This document shows positions 1-22,530 of a stretch of 23,016 nt of DNA, one piece after another. Position 1 is the first letter of the stretch, and each line of letters opens with the position of its first letter. The notes beneath the pieces are model-generated. The model was not told where the DNA came from. It was given only the letters and a program-made list of their open reading frames with translations, and made no database searches. Source of the stretch: a virus (taxonomy: Duplodnaviria; Heunggongvirae; Uroviricota; Caudoviricetes); the IMG/VR virus record IMGVR_UViG_2563366874_000001, one strand, 5' to 3'. The translations under genes and the position numbers were made by a program.

Positions 1-160
1 ATCGCAGGTGAAATTGCCAGTATTCTCGACGGGATCCCCCTGTCGGTGCAGCGGCGTTTTCCGGAACTGGAAAACCGACATGTTGATTTCCTGAAACGGG
101 ATATCATCAAAGCCATGAACAAAGCAGCCGCGCTGGATGAACTGATACCGGGGTTGCTGA

Positions 161-186
<26 letters not shown>
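1..186 (+). CDS. nu1: Terminase small subunit Nu1, C-terminal part (5' end lies outside the window)
   Basis: Frame 1 is open from position 1 to TAA at 184-186 (ends ...LLSEYIEQSG). It overlaps the start of the 641-aa terminase ORF, as Nu1/A do in lambda. The C-terminal peptide matches my recollection of lambda Nu1 apart from one residue. Confidence 0.8.
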
Positions 187-3867
<3,681 letters not shown>

Positions 3868-3887
<20 letters not shown>

Positions 3888-5187
3888 TCTCCCGCATATT
3901 ACCAGTATGGCCTTTAATGAGCCGCTGATGCTTGAACCCGCCTATGCGCGGGTTTTCTTTTGTGCGCTTGCAGGCCAGCTTGGGATCAGCCGCCTGACGG
4001 ATGCGGTATCCGGCGACAGCCTGACTGCCGGAGAGGCACCCGCGGCGCTGGCGTTATCCGTTGATGATGACGGACCACGGCAGGCCCGCAGTTATCAGGT
4101 CATGAACGGCATCGCCGTGCTGCCGGTGTCCGGCACGCTGGTCAGTCGGACGCGAGCGCTGCAGCCGTATTCGGGGATGACCGGTTACAACGGCATTATC
4201 GCCCGTCTGCAACAGGCTGCCAGCGACCCGATGGTGGACGGCATTCTGCTCGATATGGATACGCCAGGCGGGATGGTGGCAGGGGCATTTGACTGCGCTG
4301 ACATCATCGCCCGTGTGCGTGACATAAAGCCGGTATGGGCGCTGGCCAATGACATGAACTGCAGCGCAGGTCAGCTGCTTGCCAGTGCCGCCTCCCGGCG
4401 TCTGGTCACGCAGACCGCCCGGACAGGCTCCATCGGCGTCATGATGGCTCACAGTAATTACGGTGCTGCGCTGGAGAAACAGGGCGTGGAAATCACGCTG
4501 ATTTACAGCGGCAGCCATAAGGTGGATGGCAACCCCTACAGCCATCTACCGGATGATGTCCGGGAAACACTGCAGTCCCGGATGGATGCAACCCGCCGGA
4601 TGTTTGCACAGAAGGTGTCGGCATATACCGGCCTGTCCGTGCAGGCTGTGCTGGATACCGAGGCTGCAGTGTACAGCGGTCAGGAGGCCATTGATGCCGG
4701 ACTGGCTGATGAACTTGTTAACAGTACCGATGCGATCACCATCATGCGTGATGCACTGGATGCACGTAAATCCCGTCTCTCAGGAGGGCGAATGACCAAA
4801 GAGACTCAATCAACAACTGTTTCAGCCACTGCTTCGCAGGCTGACGTTACTGGCGTGGTGCAAGCGACGGAGGGCGAGAACGCCAGCGCTGCGCAGCCGG
4901 ACGTGAACGCGCAGATCACCGCAGCTGTTGCGGCAGAAAACAGTCGCATTATGGGGATCCTCAACTGTGAGGAGGCTCACGGACGCGAAGAACAGGCACG
5001 CGTGCTGGCCGAAACCCCCGGTATGACCGTGGAAACGGCCCGCCGCATTCTGGCAGTTGCACCACAGAGTGCACAGGCGCGCAGTGACACTGCGCTGGAT
5101 CGTCTGATGCAGGGGGCACCGGCACCGCTGGCTGCAGGTAACCCGGCATCTGATGCCGTTAACGATTTGCTGAACACACCAGTGTAA
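3868..5187 (+). CDS. C: Head maturation protease / scaffold C (439 aa), serine peptidase (S49-like), GTG start
   Basis: The track ORF 3733-5187 contains the gpC-like sequence from V/M-TAELRNLPHI. GTG at 3868 gives 439 aa, the length of lambda gpC, and overlaps the end of B by 20 nt. Confidence 0.88.
4582..5187 (+). CDS. nu3: Scaffolding protein Nu3, nested in-frame within the 3' third of C
   Basis: Internal in-frame ATG (MDATRRMFAQ...) 714 nt into C. In lambda, Nu3 is an in-frame internal initiation product of about 201 aa sharing the C stop codon. Confidence 0.7.
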   Translation: MDATRRMFAQKVSAYTGLSVQAVLDTEAAVYSGQEAIDAGLADELVNSTDAITIMRDALDARKSRLSGGRMTKETQSTTVSATASQADVTGVVQATEGENASAAQPDVNAQITAAVAAENSRIMGILNCEEAHGREEQARVLAETPGMTVETARRILAVAPQSAQARSDTALDRLMQGAPAPLAAGNPASDAVNDLLNTPV

Positions 5188-5196
5188 GGGATGTTT

Positions 5197-5529
5197 ATGA
5201 CGAGCAAAGAAACCTTTACCCATTACCAGCCGCTGGGCAACAGTGACCCGGCACATACGGCAACCGCGCCCGGCGGATTGAGTGCGAAAGCGCCTGCAAT
5301 GACCCCGCTGATGCTGGATACCTCCACCCGTAAGCTGGTTGCGTGGGATGGCACCACCGACGGTGCTGCCGTTGGCATTCTGGCGGTTGATGCTGACCAG
5401 ACCAGCACCACGCTGACGTTCTACAAGTCCGGCACGTTCCGTTATGAGGATGTGCTCTGGCCGGAGGCTGCCAGCGACGAGACGAAGAAACGGACCGCGT
5501 TTGCCGGAACGGCAATCAGCATCGTTTAA
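5197..5529 (+). CDS. D: Head decoration protein D (110 aa)
   Basis: Begins [12 protein letters not shown] and is 110 aa. An AAGGG Shine-Dalgarno sits 6 nt before ATG 5197. The track ORF starts two codons earlier at 5191, but that start has poor spacing. Confidence 0.9.
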
Positions 5530-5546
5530 CCTTACCCTTCATCACT

Positions 5547-5571
5547 AAAGGCCGCCTGTGCGGCTTTTTTT
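5547..5571 (+). terminator. Hairpin followed by a T-run in the D-E intergenic region (possible attenuator or mRNA stabiliser)
   Basis: AAAGGCCGC-CTGT-GCGGCTTTTTTT: a 5-bp GC stem extended by A:U pairs, then a 7-T run. It lies inside a Q-antiterminated late operon, so it is probably read through. Confidence 0.4.
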
Positions 5572-5583
5572 ACGGGATTTTTT

Positions 5584-6609
5584 ATGTCGATGTACACAAC
5601 CGCCCAGCTGCTGGCGGCAAATGAGAAGAAATTTAAGTTTGATCCGCTGTTTCTGCGTCTCTTTTTCCGTGAGAGCTATCCCTTCACCACGGAGAAAGTC
5701 TATCTCTCACAAATTCCGGGACTGGTAAACATGGCGCTGTACGTTTCGCCGATTGTTTCCGGTGAGGTTATCCGCTCCCGTGGCGGCTCCACCTCTGAAT
5801 TTACGCCGGGATATGTCAAGCCGAAGCATGAGGTGAATCCGCAGATGACCCTGCGTCGCCTGCCGGATGAAGATCCGCAGAATCTGGCGGACCCGGCTTA
5901 CCGCCGCCGTCGCATCATCATGCAGAACATGCGAGACGAAGAGCTGGCCATTGCTCAGGTCGAAGAGATGCAGGCCGTTTCTGCCGTGCTTAAGGGCAAA
6001 TACACCATGACCGGTGAAGCCTTCGATCCGGTTGAAGTGGATATGGGCCGCAGTGCGGCGAACAACATCACACAGTCCGGTGGTACGGAGTGGAGCAAGC
6101 GTGACAAGTCCACGTATGACCCGACCGACGATATCGAAGCCTATGCGCTGAACGCCAGCGGCGTGGTGAATATCATCGTGTTTGATCCGAAAGGCTGGGC
6201 GCTGTTCCGTTCCTTCAAAGCCGTCAAGGAGAAGCTGGATACCCGTCGCGGCTCTAATTCCGAGCTGGAGACAGCGGTAAAAGACCTGGGCGAAGCGGTG
6301 TCCTATAAGGGGATGTATGGCGATACGGCGATCGTCGTGTATTCCGGACAGTACGTGGAAAACGACGTCAAAAAGAACTTCCTTCCGGACAACACGATGG
6401 TGCTGGGGAACACTCAGGCACGCGGTCTGCGCACCTATGGCTGCATTCAGGATGCGGACGCACAGCGCGAAGGTATTAACGCTTCTGCCCGCTACCCGAA
6501 AAACTGGGTGACCACCGGCGATCCGGCGCGTGAGTTCACCATGATTCAGTCAGCACCGCTGATGCTGCTGGCTGACCCTGATGCGTTCGTGTCCGTACAA
6601 CTGGCGTAA
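5584..6609 (+). CDS. E: Major capsid protein E (341 aa)
   Basis: 341 aa, the length of lambda gpE, in the expected position after D. Begins MSMYTTAQLLAANE. Confidence 0.95.
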   Translation: MSMYTTAQLLAANEKKFKFDPLFLRLFFRESYPFTTEKVYLSQIPGLVNMALYVSPIVSGEVIRSRGGSTSEFTPGYVKPKHEVNPQMTLRRLPDEDPQNLADPAYRRRRIIMQNMRDEELAIAQVEEMQAVSAVLKGKYTMTGEAFDPVEVDMGRSAANNITQSGGTEWSKRDKSTYDPTDDIEAYALNASGVVNIIVFDPKGWALFRSFKAVKEKLDTRRGSNSELETAVKDLGEAVSYKGMYGDTAIVVYSGQYVENDVKKNFLPDNTMVLGNTQARGLRTYGCIQDADAQREGINASARYPKNWVTTGDPAREFTMIQSAPLMLLADPDAFVSVQLA

Positions 6610-6611
6610 TC

Positions 6612-6638
6612 ATGGCCCTTCGGGGCCATTTTCTCTTT
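6612..6638 (+). terminator. Stable stem-loop with a UUCG-type tetraloop and a U-rich tail immediately after the capsid gene
   Basis: ATGGCCC-TTCG-GGGCCAT is a perfect 7-bp stem with a TTCG loop, followed by TTTTCTCTTT, 3 nt after the E stop codon. The FI Shine-Dalgarno GGAGGA follows at 6641. Confidence 0.45.
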
Positions 6639-6650
6639 GTGGAGGAGTCC

Positions 6651-7046
6651 ATGACGAAAGATGAACTGATTGCCCGTCTTCAGGTGCTGGGTGAGCAACT
6701 GAACCGTGATGTCAGCCTGACGGGGACGAAAGAAGAACTGGTGCTCCGTGTGGCAGAGCTGGAAGAGGAGCTTGATGACACGGATGACGCTGCCGGTCAG
6801 GACACATCTGTCAGCCCGGAAAATGCGCTGACCGGACATGAAAATGAGGTTGTATCAGCGCAGCCGGATACCGTGACTGATACGGCTGATCTGGTCACGG
6901 TTGTGGCACTGGTGACGCTGCATACTGATGCACTTCACGCCACGCGGGATGAGGCTGTGGCATTTGTGCTGCCGGGAACGGCGTTCCGTGTCTCTGCCGG
7001 TGTGGCAGCTGAAATGACAGAACGTGGCCTGGCCAGAATGCAATAA
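6651..7046 (+). CDS. FI: DNA packaging / head assembly protein FI
   Basis: Starts MTKDELIARL with GGAGGA 5 nt upstream. The track ORF extends further 5' but has no RBS there. About 131 aa. Confidence 0.88.
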   Translation: MTKDELIARLQVLGEQLNRDVSLTGTKEELVLRVAELEEELDDTDDAAGQDTSVSPENALTGHENEVVSAQPDTVTDTADLVTVVALVTLHTDALHATRDEAVAFVLPGTAFRVSAGVAAEMTERGLARMQ

Positions 7047-7057
7047 CGGGAGGCGCT

Positions 7058-7411
7058 GTGGCTGATTTCGATAACCTGTTCGATGCTGCCATTGCCCGCG
7101 CCGATGAAACGATACGCGGGTACATGGGAACGTCAGCCACCATGACATCCGGTGAGCAGTCCGGCGCTGTGATACGTGGTGTTTTTGATGACCCTGAAAA
7201 TATCAGCTATGCCGGACAGGGCGTGCGCGTTGAAGGCTCCAGCCCGTCCCTGTTTGTCCGGACTGATGATGTGCGGCAACTGCGGCGTGGAGACACGCTG
7301 ACCATCGGTGAGGAAAACTTCTGGATAGACCGGGTATCGCCGGATGATGGCGGAAGCTGTCATCTCTGGCTTGGGCGTGGCGTTCCGCCTGCCGTTAACC
7401 GTCGCCGTTGA
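7058..7411 (+). CDS. FII: Head-tail connector protein FII (117 aa), GTG start
   Basis: 117-aa ORF, the length of lambda gpFII, with GTG as first codon at 7058 and a GGGAGG Shine-Dalgarno upstream. Confidence 0.88.
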   Translation: MADFDNLFDAAIARADETIRGYMGTSATMTSGEQSGAVIRGVFDDPENISYAGQGVRVEGSSPSLFVRTDDVRQLRRGDTLTIGEENFWIDRVSPDDGGSCHLWLGRGVPPAVNRRR

Positions 7412-7492
7412 AAGGGGGATGTATGGCCATAAAAGGTCTTGAGCAGGCCGTTGAAAGGGGGATGTATGGCCATACAGGGTCTTGAGCAGGCC
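7407..7492 (+). repeat. Tandem direct duplication of 43 bp (2 copies, 2 mismatches) spanning the Z ribosome-binding site and start codon
   Basis: Copy 1 at 7407-7449 is GTTGAAAGGGGGATGTATGGCCATAAAAGGTCTTGAGCAGGCC. Copy 2 at 7450-7492 is identical except ATAAAAGG becomes ATACAGGG. The 10-mer GCCGTTGAAA occurs three times, at 7404, 7447 and 7490, bounding the unit. Confidence 0.9.
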
Positions 7493-8044
7493 GTTGAAAA
7501 CCTCAGCCGTATCAGCAAAACGGCGGTTCCCGGTGCCGCCGCAATGGCCATTAACCGCGTTGCGTCATCCGCGATATCGCAGTCGGCGTCACAGGTTGCC
7601 CGTGAGACAAAGGTACGCCGGAAACTGGTAAAGGAAAGGGCCAGGCTGAAAAGGGCCACGGTCAAAAATCCGCAGGCCAGAATCAAAGTTAACCGGGGGG
7701 ATTTGCCCGTAATCAAGCTGGGTAATGCGCGGGTTGTCCTGTCCCGCCGCAGGCGTCGTAAAAAGGGGCAGCGTTCATCCCTGAAAGGTGGCGGCAGCGT
7801 GCTTGTGGTGGGTAACCGTCGTATTCCCGGCGCGTTTATTCAGCAACTGAAAAATGGCCGGTGGCATGTTATGCAGCGTGTGGCCGGGAAAAACCGTTAC
7901 CCCATTGATGTGGTGAAAATCCCGATGGCGGTGCCGCTGACCACGGCGTTTAAACAGAATATTGAACGGATACGGCGTGAACGTCTTCCGAAAGAGCTGG
8001 GCTATGCGCTGCAGCATCAACTGAGAATGGTAATAAAGCGATGA
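7466..8044 (+). CDS. Z: Tail completion protein Z (192 aa)
   Basis: Begins MAIQGLEQAVENLSRISK from the ATG in the second repeat copy; 192 aa as in lambda gpZ. ATGA overlap with U at the 3' end. Confidence 0.88.
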   Translation: MAIQGLEQAVENLSRISKTAVPGAAAMAINRVASSAISQSASQVARETKVRRKLVKERARLKRATVKNPQARIKVNRGDLPVIKLGNARVVLSRRRRRKKGQRSSLKGGGSVLVVGNRRIPGAFIQQLKNGRWHVMQRVAGKNRYPIDVVKIPMAVPLTTAFKQNIERIRRERLPKELGYALQHQLRMVIKR

Positions 8045-8436
8045 AACATACTGAACTCCGTGCAGCCGTACTGGATGCACTGGAGAAGCATGACACCGGG
8101 GCGACGCTTTTTGATGGTCGCCCCGCTGTTTTTGATGAGGAAGATTTTCCGGCAATTGCCGTTTATCTCACCGGCGCTGAATACACGGGCGAAGAGCTGG
8201 ACAGCGATACCTGGCAGGCGGAGCTGCATATTGAAGTTTTCCTGCCTGCTCAGGTGCCGGATTCAGAGCTGGATTCGTGGATGGAGTCCCGGATTTATCC
8301 GGTGATGAGCGATATCCCGGCACTGTCAGATTTGATCACCAGTATGGTGGCCAGTGGCTATGACTACCGGCGCGACGATGATGCGGGCCTGTGGAGTTCA
8401 GCCGATCTGACTTATGTCATTACCTATGAAATGTGA
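8041..8436 (+). CDS. U: Tail terminator protein U (131 aa)
   Basis: 131-aa ORF coupled to Z; length and position match lambda gpU. Confidence 0.9.
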
Positions 8437-8443
8437 GGACGCT

Positions 8444-9184
8444 ATGCCTGTACCAAATCCTGTAATGCCGGTGAAAGGTGCCGGGACCACCCTGTGGGTT
8501 TATAAGGGGAGCGGTGACCCTTATGCGAACCCGCTTTCAGACGTTGACTGGTCGCGTCTGGCAAAAGTTAAAGACCTGACGCCCGGCGAACTGACCGCTG
8601 AGTCCTATGACGACAGCTATCTCGATGATGAAGATGCAGACTGGACTGCGACCGGGCAGGGGCAGAAATCTGCCGGAGATACCAGCTTCACGCTGGCGTG
8701 GATGCCCGGAGAGCAGGGGCAGCAGGCGCTGCTGGCGTGGTTTAATGAAGGTGATACCCGTGCCTATAAAATCCGCTTCCCGAACGGCACGGTCGATGTG
8801 TTCCGTGGCTGGGTCAGCAGCATCGGTAAGGCGGTGACGGCAAAGGAAGTGATCACCCGTACGGTGAAGGTCACCAATGTGGGTCGTCCGTCAATGGCAG
8901 AAGAACACAGTACGGTGACGGCGGCAACCGGTATGACCGTGACGCCAGCCAGCGCTTCCGTAGTGAAAGGGAAGAGCACCACGCTGACCGTGGCATTCCA
9001 GCCGGAAGGCGCAACCGACAAGAGCTTCCGTGCGGTGTCAGCGGATAAAACAAAAGCTACCGTGTCGGTCAGTGGTATGACCATCACCGTGAACGGCGTT
9101 GCTGCAGGCAAGGTCAACATTCCGGTTGTATCCGGTAATGGTGAGTTTGCTGCGGTTGCAGAAATTACCGTCACCGCCAGTTAA
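8444..9184 (+). CDS. V: Major tail tube protein V (246 aa) with a C-terminal Ig-like domain
   Basis: Starts [20 protein letters not shown] with a GAGGA Shine-Dalgarno 5 nt upstream of ATG 8444. The track ORF start at 8414 overlaps U and lacks an RBS. The C-terminal about 90 aa ([12 protein letters not shown]...ITVTAS) looks like a Big_2-type Ig fold. Confidence 0.9.
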
Positions 9185-9199
9185 TCCGGAGAGTCAGCG

Positions 9200-9622
9200 A
9201 TGTTCCTGAAAACCGAATCATTTGAACATAACGGTGTGACCGTCACGCTTTCTGAACTGTCAGCCCTGCAGCGCATTGAGCATCTCGCCCTGATGAAACG
9301 GCAGGCAGAACAGGCGGAGTCAGACAGCAACCGGAAGTTTACTGTGGAAGACGCCATCAGAACCGGCGCGTTTCTGGTGGCGATGTCCCTGTGGCATAAC
9401 CATCCGCAGAAGACGCAGATGCCGTCCATGAATGAAGCCGTTAAACAGATTGAGCAGGAAGTGCTTACCACCTGGCCCACGGAGGCAATTTCTCATGCTG
9501 AAAACGTGGTGTACCGGCTGTCTGGTATGTATGAGTTTGTGGTGAATAATGCCCCTGAACAGACAGAGGACGCCGGGCCCGCAGAGCCTGTTTCTGCGGG
9601 AAAGTGTTCGACGGTGAGCTGA
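9200..9622 (+). CDS. G: Tail assembly chaperone G (140 aa)
   Basis: 140-aa ORF directly after V, ending 18 nt after the GGGAAAG slippery heptamer. Confidence 0.9.
   Translation: MFLKTESFEHNGVTVTLSELSALQRIEHLALMKRQAEQAESDSNRKFTVEDAIRTGAFLVAMSLWHNHPQKTQMPSMNEAVKQIEQEVLTTWPTEAISHAENVVYRLSGMYEFVVNNAPEQTEDAGPAEPVSAGKCSTVS
9598..9604 (+). other. Programmed -1 ribosomal frameshift site (slippery heptamer G GGA AAG) producing the G-T fusion
   Basis: The heptamer is in the correct zero-frame register near the 3' end of G (codons GCG GGA AAG). The -1 frame is open from here through 10038. This is the well-described lambda G/GT mechanism. Confidence 0.8.
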
Positions 9623-10038
9623 GTTTTGCCCTGAAACTGGCGCGTGAGATGGGGCGACCCGACTGGCGTGCCATGCTTGCCGGGATGTCATCCACGGAGT
9701 ATGCCGACTGGCACCGCTTTTACAGTACCCATTATTTTCATGATGTTCTGCTGGATATGCACTTTTCCGGGCTGACGTACACCGTGCTCAGCCTGTTTTT
9801 CAGCGATCCGGATATGCATCCGCTGGATTTCAGTCTGCTGAACCGGCGCGAGGCTGACGAAGAGCCTGAAGATGATGTGCTGATGCAGAAAGCGGCAGGG
9901 CTTGCCGGAGGTGTCCGCTTTGGCCCGGACGGGAATGAAGTTATCCCCGCTTCCCCGGATGTGGCGGACATGACGGAGGATGACGTAATGCTGATGACAG
10001 TATCAGAAGGGATCGCAGGAGGAGTCCGGTATGGCTGA
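9604..10038 (+). CDS. T: T segment of the G-T frameshift fusion tail assembly chaperone (expressed only as gpGT)
   Basis: The -1 frame relative to G is open from the slip site to TGA 10036-10038 and has no independent RBS or ATG. It overlaps the H start. Confidence 0.8.
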   Translation: MFDGELSFALKLAREMGRPDWRAMLAGMSSTEYADWHRFYSTHYFHDVLLDMHFSGLTYTVLSLFFSDPDMHPLDFSLLNRREADEEPEDDVLMQKAAGLAGGVRFGPDGNEVIPASPDVADMTEDDVMLMTVSEGIAGGVRYG

Positions 10039-12592
10039 ACCGGTAGGCGATCTGGTCGTTGATTTGAGTCTGGATGCGGCCAGATTTGACGAGCAGATGG
10101 CCAGAGTCAGGCGTCATTTTTCCGGTACGGAAAGTGATGCGAAAAAAACAGCGGCAGTCGTTGAACAGTCGCTGAGCCGACAGGCGCTGGCTGCACAGAA
10201 AGCGGGGATTTCCGTCGGGCAGTATAAAGCCGCCATGCGTATGCTGCCTGCACAGTTCACCGACGTGGCCACGCAGCTTGCCGGCGGGCAAAGTCCGTGG
10301 CTGATCCTGCTGCAACAGGGGGGGCAGGTGAAGGACTCCTTCGGCGGGATGATCCCCATGTTCAGGGGGCTTGCCGGTGCGATCACCCTGCCGATGGTGG
10401 GGGCCACCTCGCTGGCGGTGGCGACCGGTGCGCTGGCGTATGCCTGGTATCAGGGCAACTCAACCCTGTCCGATTTCAACAAAACGCTGGTCCTTTCCGG
10501 CAATCAGGCGGGACTGACGGCAGATCGTATGCTGGTCCTGTCCAGAGCCGGGCAGGCGGCAGGGCTGACGTTTAACCAGACCAGCGAGTCACTCAGCGCA
10601 CTGGTTAAGGCGGGGGTAAGCGGTGAGGCTCAGATTGCGTCCATCAGCCAGAGTGTGGCGCGTTTCTCCTCTGCATCCGGCGTGGAGGTGGACAAGGTCG
10701 CTGAAGCCTTCGGGAAGCTGACCACAGACCCGACGTCGGGGCTGACGGCGATGGCACGCCAGTTCCATAACGTGACGGCGGAGCAGATTGCGTATGTTGC
10801 TCAGTTGCAGCGTTCCGGCGATGAAGCCGGGGCATTGCAGGCGGCGAACGAGGCCGCAACGAAAGGGTTTGATGACCAGACCCGCCGCCTGAAAGAGAAC
10901 ATGGGCACGCTGGAGACCTGGGCAGACAGGACTGCGCGGGCATTCAAATCCATGTGGGATGCGGTGCTGGATATTGGTCGTCCTGATACCGCGCAGGAGA
11001 TGCTGATTAAGGCAGAGGCTGCGTTTAAGAAAGCAGACGACATCTGGAATCTGCGCAAGGATGATTATTTTGTTAACGATGAAGCGCGGGCGCGTTACTG
11101 GGATGATCGTGAAAAGGCCCGTCTTGCGCTTGAAGCCGCCCGAAAGAAGGCTGAGCAGCAGACTCAACAGGACAAAAATGCGCAGCAGCAGAGCGATACC
11201 GAAGCGTCACGGCTGAAATATACCGAAGAGGCGCAGAAGGCTTACGAACGGCTGCAGACGCCGCTGGAGAAATATACCGCCCGTCAGGAAGAACTGAACA
11301 AGGCACTGAAAGACGGGAAAATCCTGCAGGCGGATTACAACACGCTGATGGCGGCGGCGAAAAAGGATTATGAAGCGACGCTGAAAAAGCCGAAACAGTC
11401 CGGCGTGAAGGTGTCTGCGGGCGATCGTCAGGAAGACAGTGCTCATGCTGCCCTGCTGACGCTTCAGGCAGAACTCCGGACGCTGGAGAAGCATGCCGGA
11501 GCAAATGAGAAAATCAGCCAGCAGCGCCGGGATTTGTGGAAGGCGGAGAGTCAGTTCGCGGTACTGGAGGAGGCGGCGCAACGTCGCCAGCTGTCTGCAC
11601 AGGAGAAATCCCTGCTGGCGCATAAAGATGAGACGCTGGAGTACAAACGCCAGCTGGCTGCACTTGGCGACAAGGTTACGTATCAGGAGCGCCTGAACGC
11701 GCTGGCGCAGCAGGCGGATAAATTCGCACAGCAGCAACGGGCAAAACGGGCCGCCATTGATGCGAAAAGCCGGGGGCTGACTGACCGGCAGGCAGAACGG
11801 GAAGCCACGGAACAGCGCCTGAAGGAACAGTATGGCGATAATCCGCTGGCGCTGAATAACGTCATGTCAGAGCAGAAAAAGACCTGGGCGGCTGAAGACC
11901 AGCTTCGCGGGAACTGGATGGCAGGCCTGAAGTCCGGCTGGAGTGAGTGGGAAGAGAGCGCCACGGACAGTATGTCGCAGGTAAAAAGTGCAGCCACGCA
12001 GACCTTTGATGGTATTGCACAGAATATGGCGGCGATGCTGACCGGCAGTGAGCAGAACTGGCGCAGCTTCACCCGTTCCGTGCTGTCCATGATGACAGAA
12101 ATTCTGCTTAAGCAGGCAATGGTGGGGATTGTCGGGAGTATCGGCAGCGCCATTGGCGGGGCTGTTGGTGGCGGCGCATCCGCGTCAGGCGGTACAGCCA
12201 TTCAGGCCGCTGCGGCGAAACTCCATTTTGCAACCGGAGGATTTACGGGAACCGGCGGCAAATATGAGCCAGCGGGGATTGTTCACCGTGGTGAGTTTGT
12301 CTTCACGAAGGAGGCAACCAGCCGGATTGGCGTGGGGAATCTTTACCGGCTGATGCGCGGCTATGCCACCGGCGGTTATGTCGGTACACCGGGCAGCATG
12401 GCAGACAGCCGGTCGCAGGCGTCCGGGACGTTTGAGCAGAATAACCATGTGGTGATTAACAACGACGGCACGAACGGGCAGATAGGTCCGGCTGCTCTGA
12501 AGGCGGTGTATGACATGGCCCGCAAGGGTGCCCGTGATGAAATTCAGACACAGATGCGTGATGGTGGCCTGTTCTCCGGAGGTGGACGATGA
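10031..12592 (+). CDS. H: Tail tape measure protein H (853 aa)
   Basis: 853 aa, the length of lambda gpH. Long Ala/Gln/Glu/Lys-rich helical region and a C-terminal Gly-rich segment (GSIGSAIGGAVGGGASASGG). Confidence 0.95.
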   Translation: MAEPVGDLVVDLSLDAARFDEQMARVRRHFSGTESDAKKTAAVVEQSLSRQALAAQKAGISVGQYKAAMRMLPAQFTDVATQLAGGQSPWLILLQQGGQVKDSFGGMIPMFRGLAGAITLPMVGATSLAVATGALAYAWYQGNSTLSDFNKTLVLSGNQAGLTADRMLVLSRAGQAAGLTFNQTSESLSALVKAGVSGEAQIASISQSVARFSSASGVEVDKVAEAFGKLTTDPTSGLTAMARQFHNVTAEQIAYVAQLQRSGDEAGALQAANEAATKGFDDQTRRLKENMGTLETWADRTARAFKSMWDAVLDIGRPDTAQEMLIKAEAAFKKADDIWNLRKDDYFVNDEARARYWDDREKARLALEAARKKAEQQTQQDKNAQQQSDTEASRLKYTEEAQKAYERLQTPLEKYTARQEELNKALKDGKILQADYNTLMAAAKKDYEATLKKPKQSGVKVSAGDRQEDSAHAALLTLQAELRTLEKHAGANEKISQQRRDLWKAESQFAVLEEAAQRRQLSAQEKSLLAHKDETLEYKRQLAALGDKVTYQERLNALAQQADKFAQQQRAKRAAIDAKSRGLTDRQAEREATEQRLKEQYGDNPLALNNVMSEQKKTWAAEDQLRGNWMAGLKSGWSEWEESATDSMSQVKSAATQTFDGIAQNMAAMLTGSEQNWRSFTRSVLSMMTEILLKQAMVGIVGSIGSAIGGAVGGGASASGGTAIQAAAAKLHFATGGFTGTGGKYEPAGIVHRGEFVFTKEATSRIGVGNLYRLMRGYATGGYVGTPGSMADSRSQASGTFEQNNHVVINNDGTNGQIGPAALKAVYDMARKGARDEIQTQMRDGGLFSGGGR

Positions 12593-12918
12593 AGACCTTC
12601 CGCTGGAAAGTGAAACCAGGTATGGATGTGGCTTCGGTCCCTTCTGTAAGAAAGGTGCGCTTTGGTGATGGCTATTCCCAGCGAGCGCCTGCCGGGCTGA
12701 ATGCCAACCTGAAAACGTACAGCGTGACGCTTTCTGTCCCCCGTGAGGAGGCCACGGTACTGGAGTCGTTTCTGGAAGAGCACGGGGGCTGGAAAGCCTT
12801 TCTGTGGACGCCGCCTTATGAGTGGCGGCAGATAAAGGTGACCTGCGCAAAATGGTCGTCGCGGGTCAGTATGCTGCGTGTTGAGTTCAGCGCAGAGTTT
12901 GAACAGGTGGTGAACTGA
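12589..12918 (+). CDS. M: Tail tip protein M (109 aa)
   Basis: 109-aa ORF with an ATGA overlap with H; matches lambda gpM size and position. Confidence 0.9.
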   Translation: MKTFRWKVKPGMDVASVPSVRKVRFGDGYSQRAPAGLNANLKTYSVTLSVPREEATVLESFLEEHGGWKAFLWTPPYEWRQIKVTCAKWSSRVSMLRVEFSAEFEQVVN

Positions 12919-13616
12919 TGCAGGATATCCGGCAGGAAACACTGAATGAATGCACCCGTGCGGAGCAGTCGGCCAGCGTGGTGCTCTGGGAAATCGACCT
13001 GACAGAGGTCGGTGGAGAACGTTATTTTTTCTGTAATGAGCAGAACGAAAAAGGTGAGCCGGTCACCTGGCAGGGGCGACAGTATCAGCCGTATCCCATT
13101 CAGGGGAGCGGTTTTGAACTGAATGGCAAAGGCACCAGTACGCGCCCCACGCTGACGGTTTCTAACCTGTACGGTATGGTCACCGGGATGGCGGAAGATA
13201 TGCAGAGTCTGGTCGGCGGAACGGTGGTCCGGCGTAAGGTTTACGCCCGTTTTCTGGATGCGGTGAACTTCGTCAACGGAAACAGTTACGCCGATCCGGA
13301 GCAGGAGGTGATCAGCCGCTGGCGCATTGAGCAGTGCAGCGAACTGAGCGCGGTGAGTGCCTCCTTTGTACTGTCCACGCCGACGGAAACGGATGGCGCT
13401 GTTTTTCCGGGACGTATCATGCTGGCCAACACCTGCACCTGGACCTATCGCGGTGACGAGTGCGGTTATAGCGGTCCGGCTGTCGCGGATGAATATGACC
13501 AGCCGACGTCCGATATCACGAAGGATAAATGCAGCAAATGCCTGAGCGGTTGTAAGTTCCGCAATAACGTCGGCAACTTTGGCGGCTTCCTTTCCATTAA
13601 CAAACTTTCGCAGTAA
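12918..13616 (+). CDS. L: Tail tip protein L (232 aa), Cys-rich C-terminus
   Basis: 232-aa ORF with a TGATG overlap with M. A C-terminal cysteine cluster (CTWTYRGDECGYSG...CSKCLSGCKF) is consistent with the Fe-S-binding region of gpL. Confidence 0.9.
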   Translation: MQDIRQETLNECTRAEQSASVVLWEIDLTEVGGERYFFCNEQNEKGEPVTWQGRQYQPYPIQGSGFELNGKGTSTRPTLTVSNLYGMVTGMAEDMQSLVGGTVVRRKVYARFLDAVNFVNGNSYADPEQEVISRWRIEQCSELSAVSASFVLSTPTETDGAVFPGRIMLANTCTWTYRGDECGYSGPAVADEYDQPTSDITKDKCSKCLSGCKFRNNVGNFGGFLSINKLSQ

Positions 13617-13621
13617 ATCCC

Positions 13622-14365
13622 ATGACACAGACAGAATCAGCGATTCTGGCGCACGCCCGGCGATGTGCGCCAGCGGAGTCGTGCGGCTTCGTGGTAAGCA
13701 CGCCGGAGGGGGAAAGATATTTCCCCTGCGTGAATATCTCCGGTGAGCCGGAGGCGTATTTCCGTATGTCGCCGGAAGACTGGCTGCAGGCAGAAATGCA
13801 GGGTGAGATTGTGGCGCTGGTCCACAGCCACCCCGGTGGCCTGCCCTGGCTGAGTGAGGCCGACCGGCGGCTGCAGGTGCAGAGTGATTTGCCGTGGTGG
13901 CTGGTCTGCCGGGGGACGATTCATAAGTTCCGCTGTGTGCCGCATCTCACCGGGCGGCGCTTTGAGCACGGTGTGACGGACTGTTACACACTGTTCCGGG
14001 ATGCTTATCATCTGGCGGGGATTGAGATGCCGGACTTTCATCGTGAGGATGACTGGTGGCGTAACGGCCAGAATCTCTATCTGGATAATCTGGAGGCGAC
14101 GGGGCTGTATCAGGTGCCGTTGTCAGCGGCACAGCCGGGCGATGTGCTGCTGTGCTGTTTTGGTTCATCGGTGCCGAATCACGCCGCAATTTACTGCGGC
14201 GACGGCGAGCTGCTGCACCATATTCCTGAACAACTGAGCAAACGAGAGAGGTACACCGACAAATGGCAGCGACGCACACACTCCCTCTGGCGTCACCGGG
14301 CATGGCGCGCATCTGCCTTTACGGGGATTTACAACGATTTGGTCGCCGCATCGACCTTCGTGTGA
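13622..14365 (+). CDS. K: Tail tip protein K with JAMM/MPN and NlpC/P60-like features; long-form start (alternative internal start at 13766 gives 199 aa)
   Basis: 247-aa ORF beginning 6 nt after the L stop. JAMM signature HSHPGGLPWLSEAD (H-x-H-x7-S-x2-D). The internal ATG at 13766 with GGAGG upstream corresponds to the 199-aa form I recall being annotated for lambda. Confidence 0.8.
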   Translation: MTQTESAILAHARRCAPAESCGFVVSTPEGERYFPCVNISGEPEAYFRMSPEDWLQAEMQGEIVALVHSHPGGLPWLSEADRRLQVQSDLPWWLVCRGTIHKFRCVPHLTGRRFEHGVTDCYTLFRDAYHLAGIEMPDFHREDDWWRNGQNLYLDNLEATGLYQVPLSAAQPGDVLLCCFGSSVPNHAAIYCGDGELLHHIPEQLSKRERYTDKWQRRTHSLWRHRAWRASAFTGIYNDLVAASTFV

Positions 14366-14934
14366 AAACGGGGGCTGAAGCCATCCGGGCACTGGCCACA
14401 CAGCTCCCGGCGTTTCGTCAGAAACTGAGCGACGGCTGGTATCAGGTACGGATTGCCGGGCGGGACGTCAGCACGTCCGGGTTAACGGCGCAGTTACATG
14501 AGACTCTGCCTGATGGCGCTGTGATTCATATTGTTCCCAGAGTCGCCGGGGCCAAGTCAGGTGGCGTATTCCAGATTGTCCTGGGGGCTGCCGCCATTGC
14601 CGGATCATTCTTTACCGCCGGAGCCACCCTTGCAGCATGGGGGGCAGCCATTGGGGCCGGTGGTATGACCGGCATCCTGTTTTCTCTCGGTGCCAGTATG
14701 GTGCTCGGTGGTGTGGCGCAGATGCTGGCACCGAAAGCCAGAACTCCCCGTACACAGACAACGGATAACGGTAAGCAGAACACCTATTTCTCCTCACTGG
14801 ATAACATGGTTGCCCAGGGCAATGTTCTGCCTGTTCTGTACGGGGAAATGCGCGTGGGGTCACGCGTGGTTTCTCAGGAGATCAGCACGGCAGACGAAGG
14901 GGACGGTGGTCAGGTTGTGGTGATTGGTCGCTGA
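14263..14934 (+). CDS. I: Tail tip protein I (223 aa)
   Basis: 223-aa ORF overlapping the 3' end of K by about 100 nt in another frame. Hydrophobic Gly/Ala-rich central segment. Confidence 0.9.
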   Translation: MAATHTLPLASPGMARICLYGDLQRFGRRIDLRVKTGAEAIRALATQLPAFRQKLSDGWYQVRIAGRDVSTSGLTAQLHETLPDGAVIHIVPRVAGAKSGGVFQIVLGAAAIAGSFFTAGATLAAWGAAIGAGGMTGILFSLGASMVLGGVAQMLAPKARTPRTQTTDNGKQNTYFSSLDNMVAQGNVLPVLYGEMRVGSRVVSQEISTADEGDGGQVVVIGR

Positions 14935-14952
14935 TGCAAAATGTTTTATGTG

Positions 14953-14980
14953 AAACCGCCTGCGGGCGGTTTTGTCATTT
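14953..14980 (+). terminator. Hairpin in the I-J intergenic region (weak terminator or attenuator candidate)
   Basis: AAACCGCC-TGCG-GGCGGTTT followed by TGTCATTT. The downstream U-tract is interrupted, so termination efficiency is doubtful. Confidence 0.3.
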
Positions 14981-14994
14981 ATGGAGCGTGAGGA

Positions 14995-17900
14995 ATGGGT
15001 AAAGGAAGCAGTAAGGGGCATACCCCGCGCGAAGCGAAGGACAACCTGAAGTCCACGCAGTTGCTGAGTGTGATCGATGCCATCAGCGAAGGGCCGGTTG
15101 AAGGTCCGGTGGATGGATTAAAAAGCGTGCTGCTGAACAGTACGCCGGTGCTGGACAGTGAGGGGAATACCAATATATCCGGCGTCACGGTGGTGTTCCG
15201 GGCCGGTGAGCAGGAGCAGACACCGCCGGAGGGATTTGAATCCTCCGGCTCCGAGACGGTGCTGGGTACGGAAGTGAAGTACGACACGCCGATTACCCGG
15301 ACCATCACGTCGGCAAACATCGACCGTCTGCGCTTTACCTTCGGTGTGCAGGCACTGGTGGAAACCACCTCAAAGGGGGACCGGAATCCGTCGGAAGTCC
15401 GCCTGCTGGTTCAGATACAGCGTAATGGTGGCTGGGTGACGGAAAAAGACATCACCATTAAAGGCAAAACCACCTCGCAGTATCTAACCTCGGTGGTGGT
15501 GGGTGACCTGCCGCCGCGTCCGTTCAATATCCGGATGCGCAGGATGACGCCGGACAGCACCACAGACCAGCTGCAGAACAAAACGCTCTGGTCGTCATAC
15601 ACCGAAATCATCGATGTGAAACAGTGCTACCCGAACACGGCACTGGTCGGCGTACAGGTGGATTCGGAGCAGTTCGGCAGCCAGCAGGTGAGCCGTAATT
15701 ATCATCTGCGCGGGCGTATTCTGCAGGTGCCGTCGAACTATAACCCGCAGACTCGGCAATACAGCGGTATCTGGGACGGAACGTTTAAGCCAGCATACAG
15801 CAATAACATGGCCTGGTGTCTGTGGGATATGCTGACCCATCCACGCTACGGCATGGGGAAACGTCTTGGTGCGGCGGATGTGGACAAATGGGCGCTGTAT
15901 GTCATCGGCCAGTACTGCGACCAGTCAGTGCCGGACGGCTTTGGCGGCACGGAGCCGCGCATCACCTGTAATGCGTACCTGACCACACAGCGCAAGGCGT
16001 GGGATGTGCTCAGTGATTTCTGCTCGGCGATGCGCTGTATGCCGGTATGGAACGGGCAGACGCTGACGTTCGTGCAGGACCGACCGTCGGATAAGGTGTG
16101 GACCTATAACCGCAGTAATGTGGTGATGCCGGATGATGGCGCGCCGTTCCGCTACAGCTTCAGCGCCCTGAAGGACCGCCATAATGCCGTTGAGGTGAAC
16201 TGGATTGACCCGGACAACGGCTGGGAGACGGCGACAGAGCTTGTTGAAGATACGCAGGCCATTGCCCGTTACGGTCGTAATGTCACGAAGATGGATGCCT
16301 TTGGCTGTACCAGCCGGGGGCAGGCACACCGCGCCGGGCTGTGGCTGATTAAAACGGAACTGCTGGAGACGCAGACCGTGGATTTCAGCGTGGGTGCTGA
16401 AGGGCTTCGCCATGTACCGGGCGATGTCATTGAAATCTGCGATGATGACTATGCCGGTATCAGCACCGGTGGTCGCGTGCTGGCGGTGAACAGCCAGACC
16501 CGGACGCTGACGCTCGACCGTGAAATCACGCTGCCATCCTCCGGTACCACGCTGATAAGCCTGGTTGACGGAAGTGGTAATCCGGTCAGCGTGGAGGTTC
16601 AGTCCGTCACCGACGGACTTAAGGTGAAAGTGAACCGGGTTCCTGACGGCGTTGCAGAATACAGTGTGTGGGGGCTGAAGTTGCCGACGTTGCGTCAGCG
16701 CCTGTTCCGCTGTGTGAGTATCCGTGAGAACGATGACGGCACGTATGCCATCACTGCCGTGCAGCATGTACCGGAAAAAGAAGCCATCGTGGATAACGGG
16801 GCGCACTTTGACGGCGACCAGAGCGGCACGGTGAATGGTGTCACGCCGCCAGCGGTGCAGCACCTGACCGCCGAAGTCACCGCAGACAGCGGGGAATATC
16901 AGGTGCTGGCGCGCTGGGACACGCCGAAGGTGGTGAAGGGCGTGAGCTTCCTGCTCCGTCTGACCGTAACAGCGGATGACGGCAGTGAGCGGCTGGTCAG
17001 CACGGCCCGGACGACGGAAACCACATACCGCTTCACGCAACTGGCGCTGGGGAACTACAGACTGACAGTCCGGGCGGTAAATGCGTGGGGGCAGCAGGGC
17101 GATCCGGCGTCGGTATCGTTCCGGATTGCCGCACCGGCAGCACCGTCGAGGATTGAGCTGACGCCGGGCTATTTTCAGATAACCGCCACGCCGCATCTTG
17201 CCGTTTATGACCCGACGGTACAGTTTGAGTTCTGGTTCTCGGAAAAGCGGATTACCGATATCAGGCAGGTTGAAACCACAGCCCGCTATCTTGGTACGGC
17301 GCTGTACTGGATAGCCGCCAGTATCAATATCAAACCGGGCCATGATTATTACTTTTATATCCGCAGTGTGAACACCGTTGGCAAATCGGCATTCGTGGAG
17401 GCTGTCGGTCAGGCGAGCGATGATGCGGAAGGTTACCTAGATTTTTTCAAAGGCCAGATAACCGAATCCCATCTCGGCAAGGAGCTGCTGGAAAAAGTCG
17501 AGCTGACGGAGGATAACGCCAGCAGACTGGAGGAGTTTTCGAAAGAGTGGCAGGACGCTAACGATAAGTGGAATGCCATGTGGGGCGTCAAAATTGAGCA
17601 GACCAAAGACGGCAAACATTATGTCGCGGGTATTGGCCTCAGCATGGAGGACACGGAAGAAGGCAAGCTGAGCCAGTTTCTGGTTGCCGCTAACCGTATC
17701 GCGTTTATTGACCCGGCAAACGGGAATGAAACGCCGATGTTTGTGGCGCAGGGCAATCAGATATTTATGAACGACGTGTTCCTGAAGCGCCTGACGGCCC
17801 CGACCATTACCAGTGGTGGAAATCCACCGGCATTTTCCCTGACATCAGACGGAAAGCTGACCGCTAAAAATGCGGATATCAGTGGCAGAGTGAATGCGAA

Positions 17901-18408
17901 CGCCGGGACGCTCAACAATGTCACGGTAAATGAAAACTGTACGATTAAGGGCATGCTGGAGGCGACTCAGGTCAGAGGTGACTTCGTTAAAGCTGTATCC
18001 AAATCATTCCCGAAACAGGCTGGTACGTGGGGTAACACGGAAACACCAAACGGGACGGTTACAGTCACCATCAGCGATGATCATAACTTTGACCGTCAAA
18101 TCATTATTCCGCCCATTATCTTTAACGGAATAGCGTATAGCGATCCGGGAAGTGGTAATAACCCGGGAGGTACAAGATACACGGGTTATGGTTTTGAAGT
18201 TCGCAAAAACGGTGTATTAATCGCATCCAGAGAAACTAAAGGGGCCATTCCCGGTAGCTACAGTGCGGTTATTGATATGCCGAGTGGCAGGGGAAGCGTC
18301 ACTCTGGAGTTTAAGGTTTTCCATAAAGGCAATCAGTGGGCAGGTAATATCACCGACTGTACGGTGATTGTGACCAAAAAAGCCGCTTCCGGCATCAGTA
18401 TTCGTTGA
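14995..18408 (+). CDS. J: Central tail fiber / host specificity protein J (1137 aa)
   Basis: 1137-aa ORF starting [20 protein letters not shown]. Lambda gpJ is 1132 aa by my recollection. The last roughly 150 codons are visibly lower in GC than the rest of the gene. Confidence 0.95.
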
Positions 18409-18429
18409 AATTGTTATAACCCATATAAG

Positions 18430-18456
18430 GGCACCAGAAATGGTGCCTTTTTTATT
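18430..18456 (+). terminator. Rho-independent terminator downstream of J
   Basis: GGCACCA-GAAA-TGGTGCC is a perfect 7-bp stem with a GAAA loop, followed by TTTTTTATT. Confidence 0.7.
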
Positions 18457-18477
18457 GCAGAAAAGCGAGAGGTAATT

Positions 18478-19077
18478 ATGCGTAAACTTTATGCCGCCAT
18501 TTTGTCCGCAGCCATTTGTCTGGCCGTATCCGGTGCGCCTGCATGGGCATCTGAACATCAGTCCACGCTGAGCGCGGGGTATCTTCATGCCCGGACCAAC
18601 GTTCCCGGCAGTGATGATCTGAACGGGATTAACGTGAAATACCGTTATGAGTTTACGGATACGCTGGGGCTGGTGACGTCATTCAGCTATGCAGGAGACA
18701 AGAATCGCCAGCTGACCCGTTACAGCGATACCCGCTGGCATGAAGATTCCGTGCGTAACCGCTGGTTCAGCGTGATGGCGGGGCCGTCTGTGCGCGTGAA
18801 TGAATGGTTCAGCGCGTATGCGATGGCGGGTATGGCTTACAGCCGTGTTTCGACTTTTTCCGGGGATTACCTTCGCGTAACTGACAACAAGGGGAAAACG
18901 CACGATGTGCTGACCGGAAGTGATGACGGTCGCCACAGCAACACGTCTCTGGCGTGGGGGGCTGGCGTGCAGTTTAACCCGACCGAATCCGTGGCCATTG
19001 ATATTGCTTATGAAGGTTCTGGCAGTGGTGACTGGCGCACTGACGGTTTCATCGTGGGTGTCGGTTATAAATTCTGA
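18478..19077 (+). CDS. lom: Outer membrane beta-barrel protein Lom (Ail/OmpX family), 199 aa, with signal peptide
   Basis: N-terminal signal peptide MRKLYAAILSAAICLAVSGAPAWA, alternating beta-strand pattern, and a C-terminal aromatic end (GVGYKF). Located between J and stf as in lambda. Confidence 0.9.
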   Translation: MRKLYAAILSAAICLAVSGAPAWASEHQSTLSAGYLHARTNVPGSDDLNGINVKYRYEFTDTLGLVTSFSYAGDKNRQLTRYSDTRWHEDSVRNRWFSVMAGPSVRVNEWFSAYAMAGMAYSRVSTFSGDYLRVTDNKGKTHDVLTGSDDGRHSNTSLAWGAGVQFNPTESVAIDIAYEGSGSGDWRTDGFIVGVGYKF

Positions 19078-21538: not shown

Positions 21539-21816
21539 AAGATTTAACACTCAAATTTGCAGACAGGGCCGACTTTTCGGCCTTTATGGAGAGCATTGGC
21601 TATTATGATGACGAGTCGATGCAGGATGATATTCTTATTGACGTGATAGGTAATGTGTACAAAGAAACCGGAGAACTTACTGAAGATGGCGAGCCGGTAT
21701 GTGTTAAGGAGGACGGATATTTTGTAAATGTGCGCATCATTAATGATTCGCAAATATCGTCATTATTCGATGAATACGTGGTTGCTGTTGAGCATCAACT
21801 CCGTAGCTGGATGTGA
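21535..21816 (+). CDS. Small acidic hypothetical protein (93 aa), translationally coupled to stf; possible tail fiber assembly or chaperone factor
   Basis: ATGA overlap with the stf stop codon. Low GC like the stf 3' region. No recognisable similarity to lambda Tfa, so the function is inferred from position only. Confidence 0.5.
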   Translation: MKDLTLKFADRADFSAFMESIGYYDDESMQDDILIDVIGNVYKETGELTEDGEPVCVKEDGYFVNVRIINDSQISSLFDEYVVAVEHQLRSWM

Positions 21817-21825
21817 GGAAGAAAA

Positions 21826-22530
21826 ATGGCTACATCGACAGTAATTCCTGATGACATCAAAACGCTAAAGGGAGATGTCAGTAAGGCAAAGGAAGATATT
21901 TCCTCAATTAACGTAAAAGTATCAACGCTTCAGACTGATATGGACAGTGCAAAGCAGGATATCAGTACCAGATACACAAAAACAGAAGTGGATAATAAGC
22001 TGAAAAACAAAGTGGAAGTGAACGATCTGGAAAGTGGTCGTTATGGCGGAGATTTTTACCCGCTGACTGGCCGTGAAGCGTTTTATTTATGGGGATTGGG
22101 CACAACTACAGCGGCGGCAAATCTTTATCTTAATCCTGACCCTGCAATTTCGTCTGTGCTGCGGTCAACATCGTCTATCCGCTATAAACATTCAGTAGAG
22201 ACGATAGATTCAGAGCACGCCGATCTCATTTTCAGGATGCGCCCTGTGTGGTACAGGTCGCAATGCGAAAATGACAGGCGTGACTGGGGATTCTATGGAT
22301 TGATTGCCGAGGAAGTAGGAGAAATTGCCCCTCAGTTTGTTCACTGGCGACCAGCCAACGAAGATGATGCACCGGAAACCATTTCCAGCAATGGCCTTGT
22401 TGCCGAAGGTGTAATGTACGAACGTCTGGTTGTTCCACTGATTCACCATATCCAGAAACTGACTGAAAGAGTTGATGAACTTGAGTCAGAATTGAAGTTG
22501 TTATCAACTTCCCAAAGCGATATCGGATAA
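21826..22530 (+). CDS. Tail-fiber-like protein (234 aa): N-terminal coiled-coil-like region plus C-terminal peptidase-S74-like intramolecular chaperone domain
   Basis: GGAAGA Shine-Dalgarno-like sequence upstream of ATG 21826. The C-terminal half (SSIRYKHSVETIDSEHADLIFRMRPVWYR...GLIAEEV...LVVPLIHHIQKLTERVDELESELKLL) follows the pattern of the endosialidase/T5 pb1 C-terminal chaperone domain, including a Ser-x4-Lys dyad at S116/K121 (nt 22171-22188). Confidence 0.65.
   Translation: MATSTVIPDDIKTLKGDVSKAKEDISSINVKVSTLQTDMDSAKQDISTRYTKTEVDNKLKNKVEVNDLESGRYGGDFYPLTGREAFYLWGLGTTTAAANLYLNPDPAISSVLRSTSSIRYKHSVETIDSEHADLIFRMRPVWYRSQCENDRRDWGFYGLIAEEVGEIAPQFVHWRPANEDDAPETISSNGLVAEGVMYERLVVPLIHHIQKLTERVDELESELKLLSTSQSDIG

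Follow-up and report, generated by a model that had tools for sequence, protein, structure and literature searches.

A 434-type J specificity cassette in the tail-tip region of a lambdoid phage or prophage of Escherichia coli

Receptor recognition by gpJ in lambda and its relatives

The central tail fibre protein of phage lambda, gpJ (NP_040600; structures 8iyk, 8xcj and 8xck), has LamB as its receptor, and the events that follow contact have been described by cryo-EM (PMC11101478). Four loops from the C-terminal Ig-like domains of the three J chains enter the LamB trimer, the receptor-binding domain opens at its base, and the change is relayed through the beta-prism fibre and the helical shaft until the tail itself opens. 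The main text of that study gives no residue ranges for the receptor loops L1–L4, and the link made below between loops and hotspots of sequence variation rests on the work of Maddamsetti et al. (2018; PMC6646904) together with the alignment made here. Those authors delimited residues 960–1132 of J as a 'specificity region' with a phylogeny discordant with that of the rest of J, concluded that it "is an evolutionary module" that recombines independently, and placed four lineage-defining indel hotspots within it, at residues 1012, 1048–49, 1077–78 and 1107; they assigned no receptors to the natural classes.

The J protein of phage 434 uses OmpC (PMC3509688, PMC11101478, PMC12502783), and lambda is re-targeted to OmpC when its J is replaced by that of 434 (PMC3509688, PMC11101478). 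A study from 2025 (PMC12502783) likewise treats the 434 J as OmpC-binding, and reports from knockout and complementation that the long-tailed EHEC phage phi330 uses OmpC, such that this receptor is used by more than one class of J tip. In phage 21 a single mutation in J is enough to add a receptor, giving use of OmpC (PMC11336670).

The J gene of the window and its departure from lambda

The window analysed here is the whole 23,016-nucleotide stretch of IMG/VR virus record IMGVR_UViG_2563366874_000001, and in its entirety it reads as a lambda-type late region. The tail-tip genes follow the lambda order, M-L-K-I-J and then lom and stf, with ORFs at the M, L, K and I positions and with lom and stf assigned by Pfam. 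The ORF at the K position (13622–14365) is 247 aa long from its first ATG, corresponding to the long form in the 434 record (14132..14875); K in the lambda record is 199 aa. The J gene and its parts are as follows.

14995..18408, + strand: J, tail tip attachment / host specificity protein (central tail fibre), an ORF of 3414 nt encoding 1137 aa, from the ORF list, translation and Pfam
14995..17964, + strand: lambda-like J body (hub domains, FNIII/Ig domains, helical shaft and beta-prism fibre), codons 1 to ~990, from blastn to lambda
17965..18408, + strand: 434-type receptor-binding module of J, residues ~991–1137, divergent and of lower GC, from identity, GC and indels
17995..18402, + strand: Ig_GpJ_C (PF12421), predicted receptor-binding Ig-like domain, residues 1001–1136, from Pfam

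J is 89% identical overall to lambda J (BLASTP) and has the same domain architecture, with six Pfam families in the lambda order (FNIII-A_GpJ, Phage-tail_3, Ig_J, Ig_J_second, Phage_Tail_Tip and Ig_GpJ_C), all six above their curated cut-offs. As the initial annotation had proposed, it is five residues longer than its lambda counterpart (1137 versus 1132 aa), close to lambda gpJ over its first ~980 residues, and only loosely similar to it over the last ~150. In a global alignment, 938 of residues 1–960 are identical (97.7%), scattered substitutions start already at residue 965 (nt 17887), and identity is 76% over residues 961–985, 37.5% over residues 986–1137, and 39.0% when the last segment is taken from residue 979. 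At the nucleotide level the transition is abrupt: blastn aligns positions 1..17964 of the window colinearly with lambda 551..18474 at 97.5% identity, and the match ends sharply at 17964, which is J codon ~990 and lies about 11 codons from the start first proposed for the divergent segment (17930, codon 979). Beyond this point there are four indels relative to lambda J, at lambda residues 1011/12 (+2), 1047/48 (+6), 1077/78 (+1) and 1102–1113 (+2/-6), and these fall at the specificity loops. With four indels and an identity of 37–39%, rather than the more than 95% by which a lambda C terminus had been expected to be recognizable, the tip is not of the lambda, LamB-binding allele.

The divergent end is assigned as the gpJ receptor-binding domain, the function proposed for it at the outset, because of its match to Ig_GpJ_C and its alignment to the solved lambda structures. 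The Pfam family, named 'Tip attachment protein J, C-terminal receptor binding domain', is matched with a score of 90.9 bits (cut-off 26.2) over profile positions 1–134 of 135, and the last 177 aa of J align end-to-end with the lambda gpJ receptor-binding domain structures 8xcj and 8xck (phmmer, query residues 1–176, E 6.5e-33). A single-sequence AlphaFold2 model of the same 177 aa came out all-beta, with a mean pLDDT of only 48.5, too poor for fold comparison or loop mapping.

The base composition of J changes along the gene, and its end is indeed AT-richer than its body, as had been noted: GC is 0.472 over 17930–18408 versus 0.594 in the first 2150 nt of J. When a 479-nt frame was slid along 1..17929, all 349 placements gave a GC above 0.472 (mean 0.574, sd 0.025, minimum 0.509), and GC3 within J is 0.489 in the tail versus 0.696 in the body. 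The last 479 nt of lambda J itself have a GC of 0.543. An earlier step, from ~0.60 to ~0.52, occurs near 17150, some 800 nt before the divergence point (17150–17930). Because lambda and 434 have this step too, with GC of 0.529 and 0.525, respectively, over the same part of J, it is a property of the conserved fibre part and not of the swapped module, and the allele-specific part of the fall is only the further drop below ~0.52. An antisense ORF of 472 aa (15925–17343, minus strand) lies wholly inside J, and is probably only a consequence of how high GC3 is in the body of the gene.

The divergence from lambda does not stop with J, and two further features lie within or across it.

18427..18460, + strand: terminator-like hairpin and T-run between J and lom, from a consensus scan (a 10-bp stem, then TTTTATT; hairpin at 18427–18450)
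18478..19077, + strand: lom, Ail/Lom outer-membrane beta-barrel protein, 199 aa, 434-type allele, from Pfam (Ail_Lom, 398.9 bits)

The non-lambda block runs past the J stop, through the terminator and through most of lom, with the lambda match resuming at ~18950 (blastn), and the predicted Lom has only 46% amino acid identity to lambda Lom. Phage 434, compared in 30-nt bins, keeps a nucleotide identity of 83–100% throughout the gap in the lambda match, including the spacer and lom (87–100% per bin within lom), and has the same downstream terminator and lom allele; lom and the J tip are parts of one non-lambda block. In the records of 434, mEp460 and Ayreon a terminator is annotated at the corresponding position. 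In PhiR11_1* a 434-class J tip is followed directly by stf, and lom is not always linked to this tip. An antisense ORF at 18217..18588 overlaps the end of J, and we assume that it is not a real gene.

Downstream of lom are the side tail fibre gene and two further ORFs (21535–22530), one of which has a recognizable domain.

19142–21538: stf, side tail fibre, 798 aa, with Pfam phage_tail_N at residues 1–131
21826..22530: ORF of 234 aa, with a Peptidase_S74 intramolecular-chaperone domain at residues 116–172 (E 4.6e-6)

The lambda match ends at 19491, within stf (blastn), and beyond ~19494 the side tail fibre region of the window is unrelated to that of 434. A tract of ~250 residues in stf (19480–20250) is rich in Ala, Ser, Thr, Lys and Glu and contains repeats of the form 'AAKTSETNAKxSQT', to which Tandem Repeats Finder assigns periods of 21, 42 and 189 nt; this tract accounts for the extreme AT skew (0.43–0.63) at 19400–20150. 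The C-terminal half of stf has a low GC (0.36–0.42). Of the two ORFs after stf, the 93-aa one gave no match in a Pfam search. Size-matched ORFs are present at the equivalent positions after stf in phage PhiR49_1, where the 234-aa ORF is noted as 'tail fiber protein'.

Relatives of the module and origin of the tip

The closest characterized relative of the J tip is that of phage 434 (OL657226, CPT_434_21), the 'h434' host-range allele. The two J proteins are of the same length (1137 aa) with the stop at the same position, and are 98.6% identical over residues 1–960, 95.4% over residues 986–1137, and 95% over the last 159 residues (96.3% at the nucleotide level for the whole gene). The 434 protein has the same pattern of indels relative to lambda (+2, +6, +1, +2/-6), and the last 200 residues align to those of the window without a gap and with 13 substitutions, seven of them within the receptor-binding domain (window to 434: S1004A, Q1008K, A1009V, N1019D, S1049D, R1099G and W1115R). 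On these grounds we classify the tip as a member of the 434-type (h434) receptor-binding allele class, which is well known, very common and in no way particular to this phage.

The genome of the hybrid phage lambda h434 imm21 (OM418627) bears on the extent of this allele. Scored at informative sites, it is of lambda type between nt 2182 and 17619 and of 434 type beyond nt 17637, with this site included (J codon ~711), and a second 434-type patch is found at nt 175–1684 (21 sites), in the Nu1/A region. Because 434-type DNA starts between nt 17619 and 17637, the h434 host-range allele includes the region homologous to the divergent tip of the window, although the hybrid alone cannot map host range to the last 150 codons, since the 434 lom and side tail fibre genes are also present.

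The same module is found in a variety of other phages. It is 100% identical in PhiR49_1 and Ayreon, the last 177 aa of J have 99.4% identity in Perceval and in O157 Stx2c- and Stx1a-converting phages (tblastn), and the module of phage cdtI has 99.6% nucleotide identity to the window. PhiR49_1 (PV340568) resembles the window over the whole of J (99.7% nucleotide identity) and has the same gene arrangement after it (lom, stf and three further size-matched ORFs), with lom split into two ORFs in its record. In Ayreon (MF807953), cdtI, ev099 and phi458 the module is instead carried on a longer J body of 3498 nt; for Ayreon the last 159 aa are 100% identical to the window, whereas the whole-gene match covers 93% in two pieces with an overall identity of 95.1%. 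The head and other regions of PhiR49_1, Ayreon, Perceval, cdtI and the O157 Stx phages differ from those of the window, and none of the records in the phage collection spans the window in full. Among complete E. coli genomes the module is present in 2112 of 5426, and the sub-allele of the window is the commonest form, with 754 records at 99% identity or above. The segment 17800–22551 as a whole is present at 99.9% identity in several human E. coli chromosomes.

The J tips fall into discrete groups when the last 177 aa are compared by tblastn with 50,697 phage records. Identities are at least 91.5% in 74 records (91.5–100%) and below 60% in 179 (33–50% among the matches listed), and there are no tips of intermediate identity (60–91%). 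Because the identities are bimodal, J receptor-binding domains fall into discrete allele classes. At least four are separated by alignment (lambda, 434, BP-4795/4A7 and Stx2a_WGPS2), with identities of 35–65% between classes; within the 434 class the sub-alleles form a recombined patchwork. The BP-4795/4A7, Stx2a_WGPS2 and phi330 classes have homologous Ig_GpJ_C domains on lambda-like J bodies, but these are only 39–43% identical to the window over the last 159 residues (45–50% by tblastn over the last 177 aa) and differ in their indel patterns. The structures 9wca and 9wcb ('A8 gpJ 713') in the PDB are a better match to positions 17875–18405 of the window (E 2.9e-42) than are the lambda structures (E 6.5e-33). 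Their sequence resembles the BP-4795/4A7 class, and a literature search found no publication describing them.

The J gene of the window is thus best described as a mosaic, with a lambda-type body to codon ~990 followed by ~150 codons of 434 type that come with the terminator and lom. The divergent segment, its breakpoint and its four indels coincide with the specificity region of Maddamsetti et al., and nothing substantive differs. The sharpness of the boundary, the four indels, and the presence of an identical module on a different and longer J body all point to acquisition of the divergent end by cassette exchange and not by drift through point mutation, as do the extension of the non-lambda block into non-coding DNA and lom and the fall in GC3, which selection acting on J residues alone fails to explain. 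The module was most likely acquired by homologous recombination, with one exchange in the conserved part of J and another where lom meets stf, and its lower GC and GC3 are the mark of a separate evolutionary history.

Two other origins for the tip have been weighed. Divergence in place from a lambda-like ancestor, by rapid point mutation under diversifying selection and with no exchange of cassettes, draws on the report that the specificity region is under diversifying selection and evolves fast in the laboratory (PMC6646904), but we reject it as highly improbable. Such a process does not accord with a boundary as sharp as that at 17964, with synonymous sites that are equally divergent (GC3 falls from 0.70 to 0.49), with divergence of the non-coding spacer and lom, or with the four indels, and it leaves the identity of the module on different J bodies in different phage genera, and the lack of intermediates at 60–91% identity, without an account. 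That the tail might instead be the decayed, non-functional J end of a defective prophage is suggested by the cryptic lambdoid remnants in many E. coli genomes and by the high frequency of this segment in chromosomes. It is scarcely credible given that the frame stays open as far as the 434 stop position, that the Pfam domain is covered from end to end, and that identical sequences are found in phages recorded as isolated on named hosts (a K-12 derivative for Ayreon, ECOR13 for PhiR49_1), and this reading too is rejected.

Predicted receptor and significance

The phage is likely to use OmpC and not LamB, a prediction from homology to 434, and the 95% identity of its tip to that of a phage for which OmpC is the receptor in the literature lends support to the suggestion in the initial annotation of a receptor other than LamB. 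The C-terminal ~135 residues would form the trimeric, Ig-like domain by which the end of the central tail fibre binds its receptor, and this 434-class domain would dock on the trimeric porin OmpC in place of LamB. By extension from the lambda cryo-EM, docking on OmpC would trigger the same conformational relay from fibre to hub, which is expected because the J body that carries the relay is 97.7% conserved; this J presumably shares both the trimeric domain and the triggering mechanism with lambda gpJ. A search of the literature found no receptor assignment for phages with this module (PhiR49_1 and other PhiR phages, Ayreon, Perceval, phi458, cdtI, mEp460, IdasGreatGrand and HannyBb), and none is reported in the Ayreon genome announcement, the LF82 prophage paper or the BASEL papers.

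An identity of 95% to 434 does not guarantee the same receptor, since one J mutation in phage 21 adds a receptor (PMC11336670). With the fold and class of 434 retained, the seven substitutions in the domain might shift or broaden recognition, towards particular wild OmpC variants, OmpF, or a second porin besides OmpC. Five of the seven (1008, 1009, 1019, 1049 and 1115) lie at, or within ~11 residues of, the indel and specificity hotspots that control receptor choice in lambda, and the patchwork recombination of sub-alleles in the 434 class is as ongoing selection would give. We nevertheless consider such a shift unlikely: the substitutions are few and mostly conservative, the class-defining indel pattern is unchanged, and Ayreon and PhiR26_1, with identical or near-identical domains, have E. 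coli K-12 strains as their recorded hosts, like 434 itself. Should the seven changes tune recognition to natural OmpC variants after all, the sub-allele patchwork would be the trace of a continuing arms race in which the J tips of prophages face the polymorphic loops of OmpC.

The feature is the well-known and very frequent J specificity cassette of 434 type, carried here by a lambdoid E. coli phage or prophage. Earlier publications cover the allele, the way it behaves as a module and the receptor used by its prototype, and there is no new biology here. The locus is a clean textbook case of the modular exchange of a receptor-binding cassette, in which the likely receptor, predicted to be OmpC, can be read from the sequence; for lambdoid and long-tailed Stx prophages, such a reading is useful in predicting host range, patterns of superinfection and the routes by which resistance can arise.
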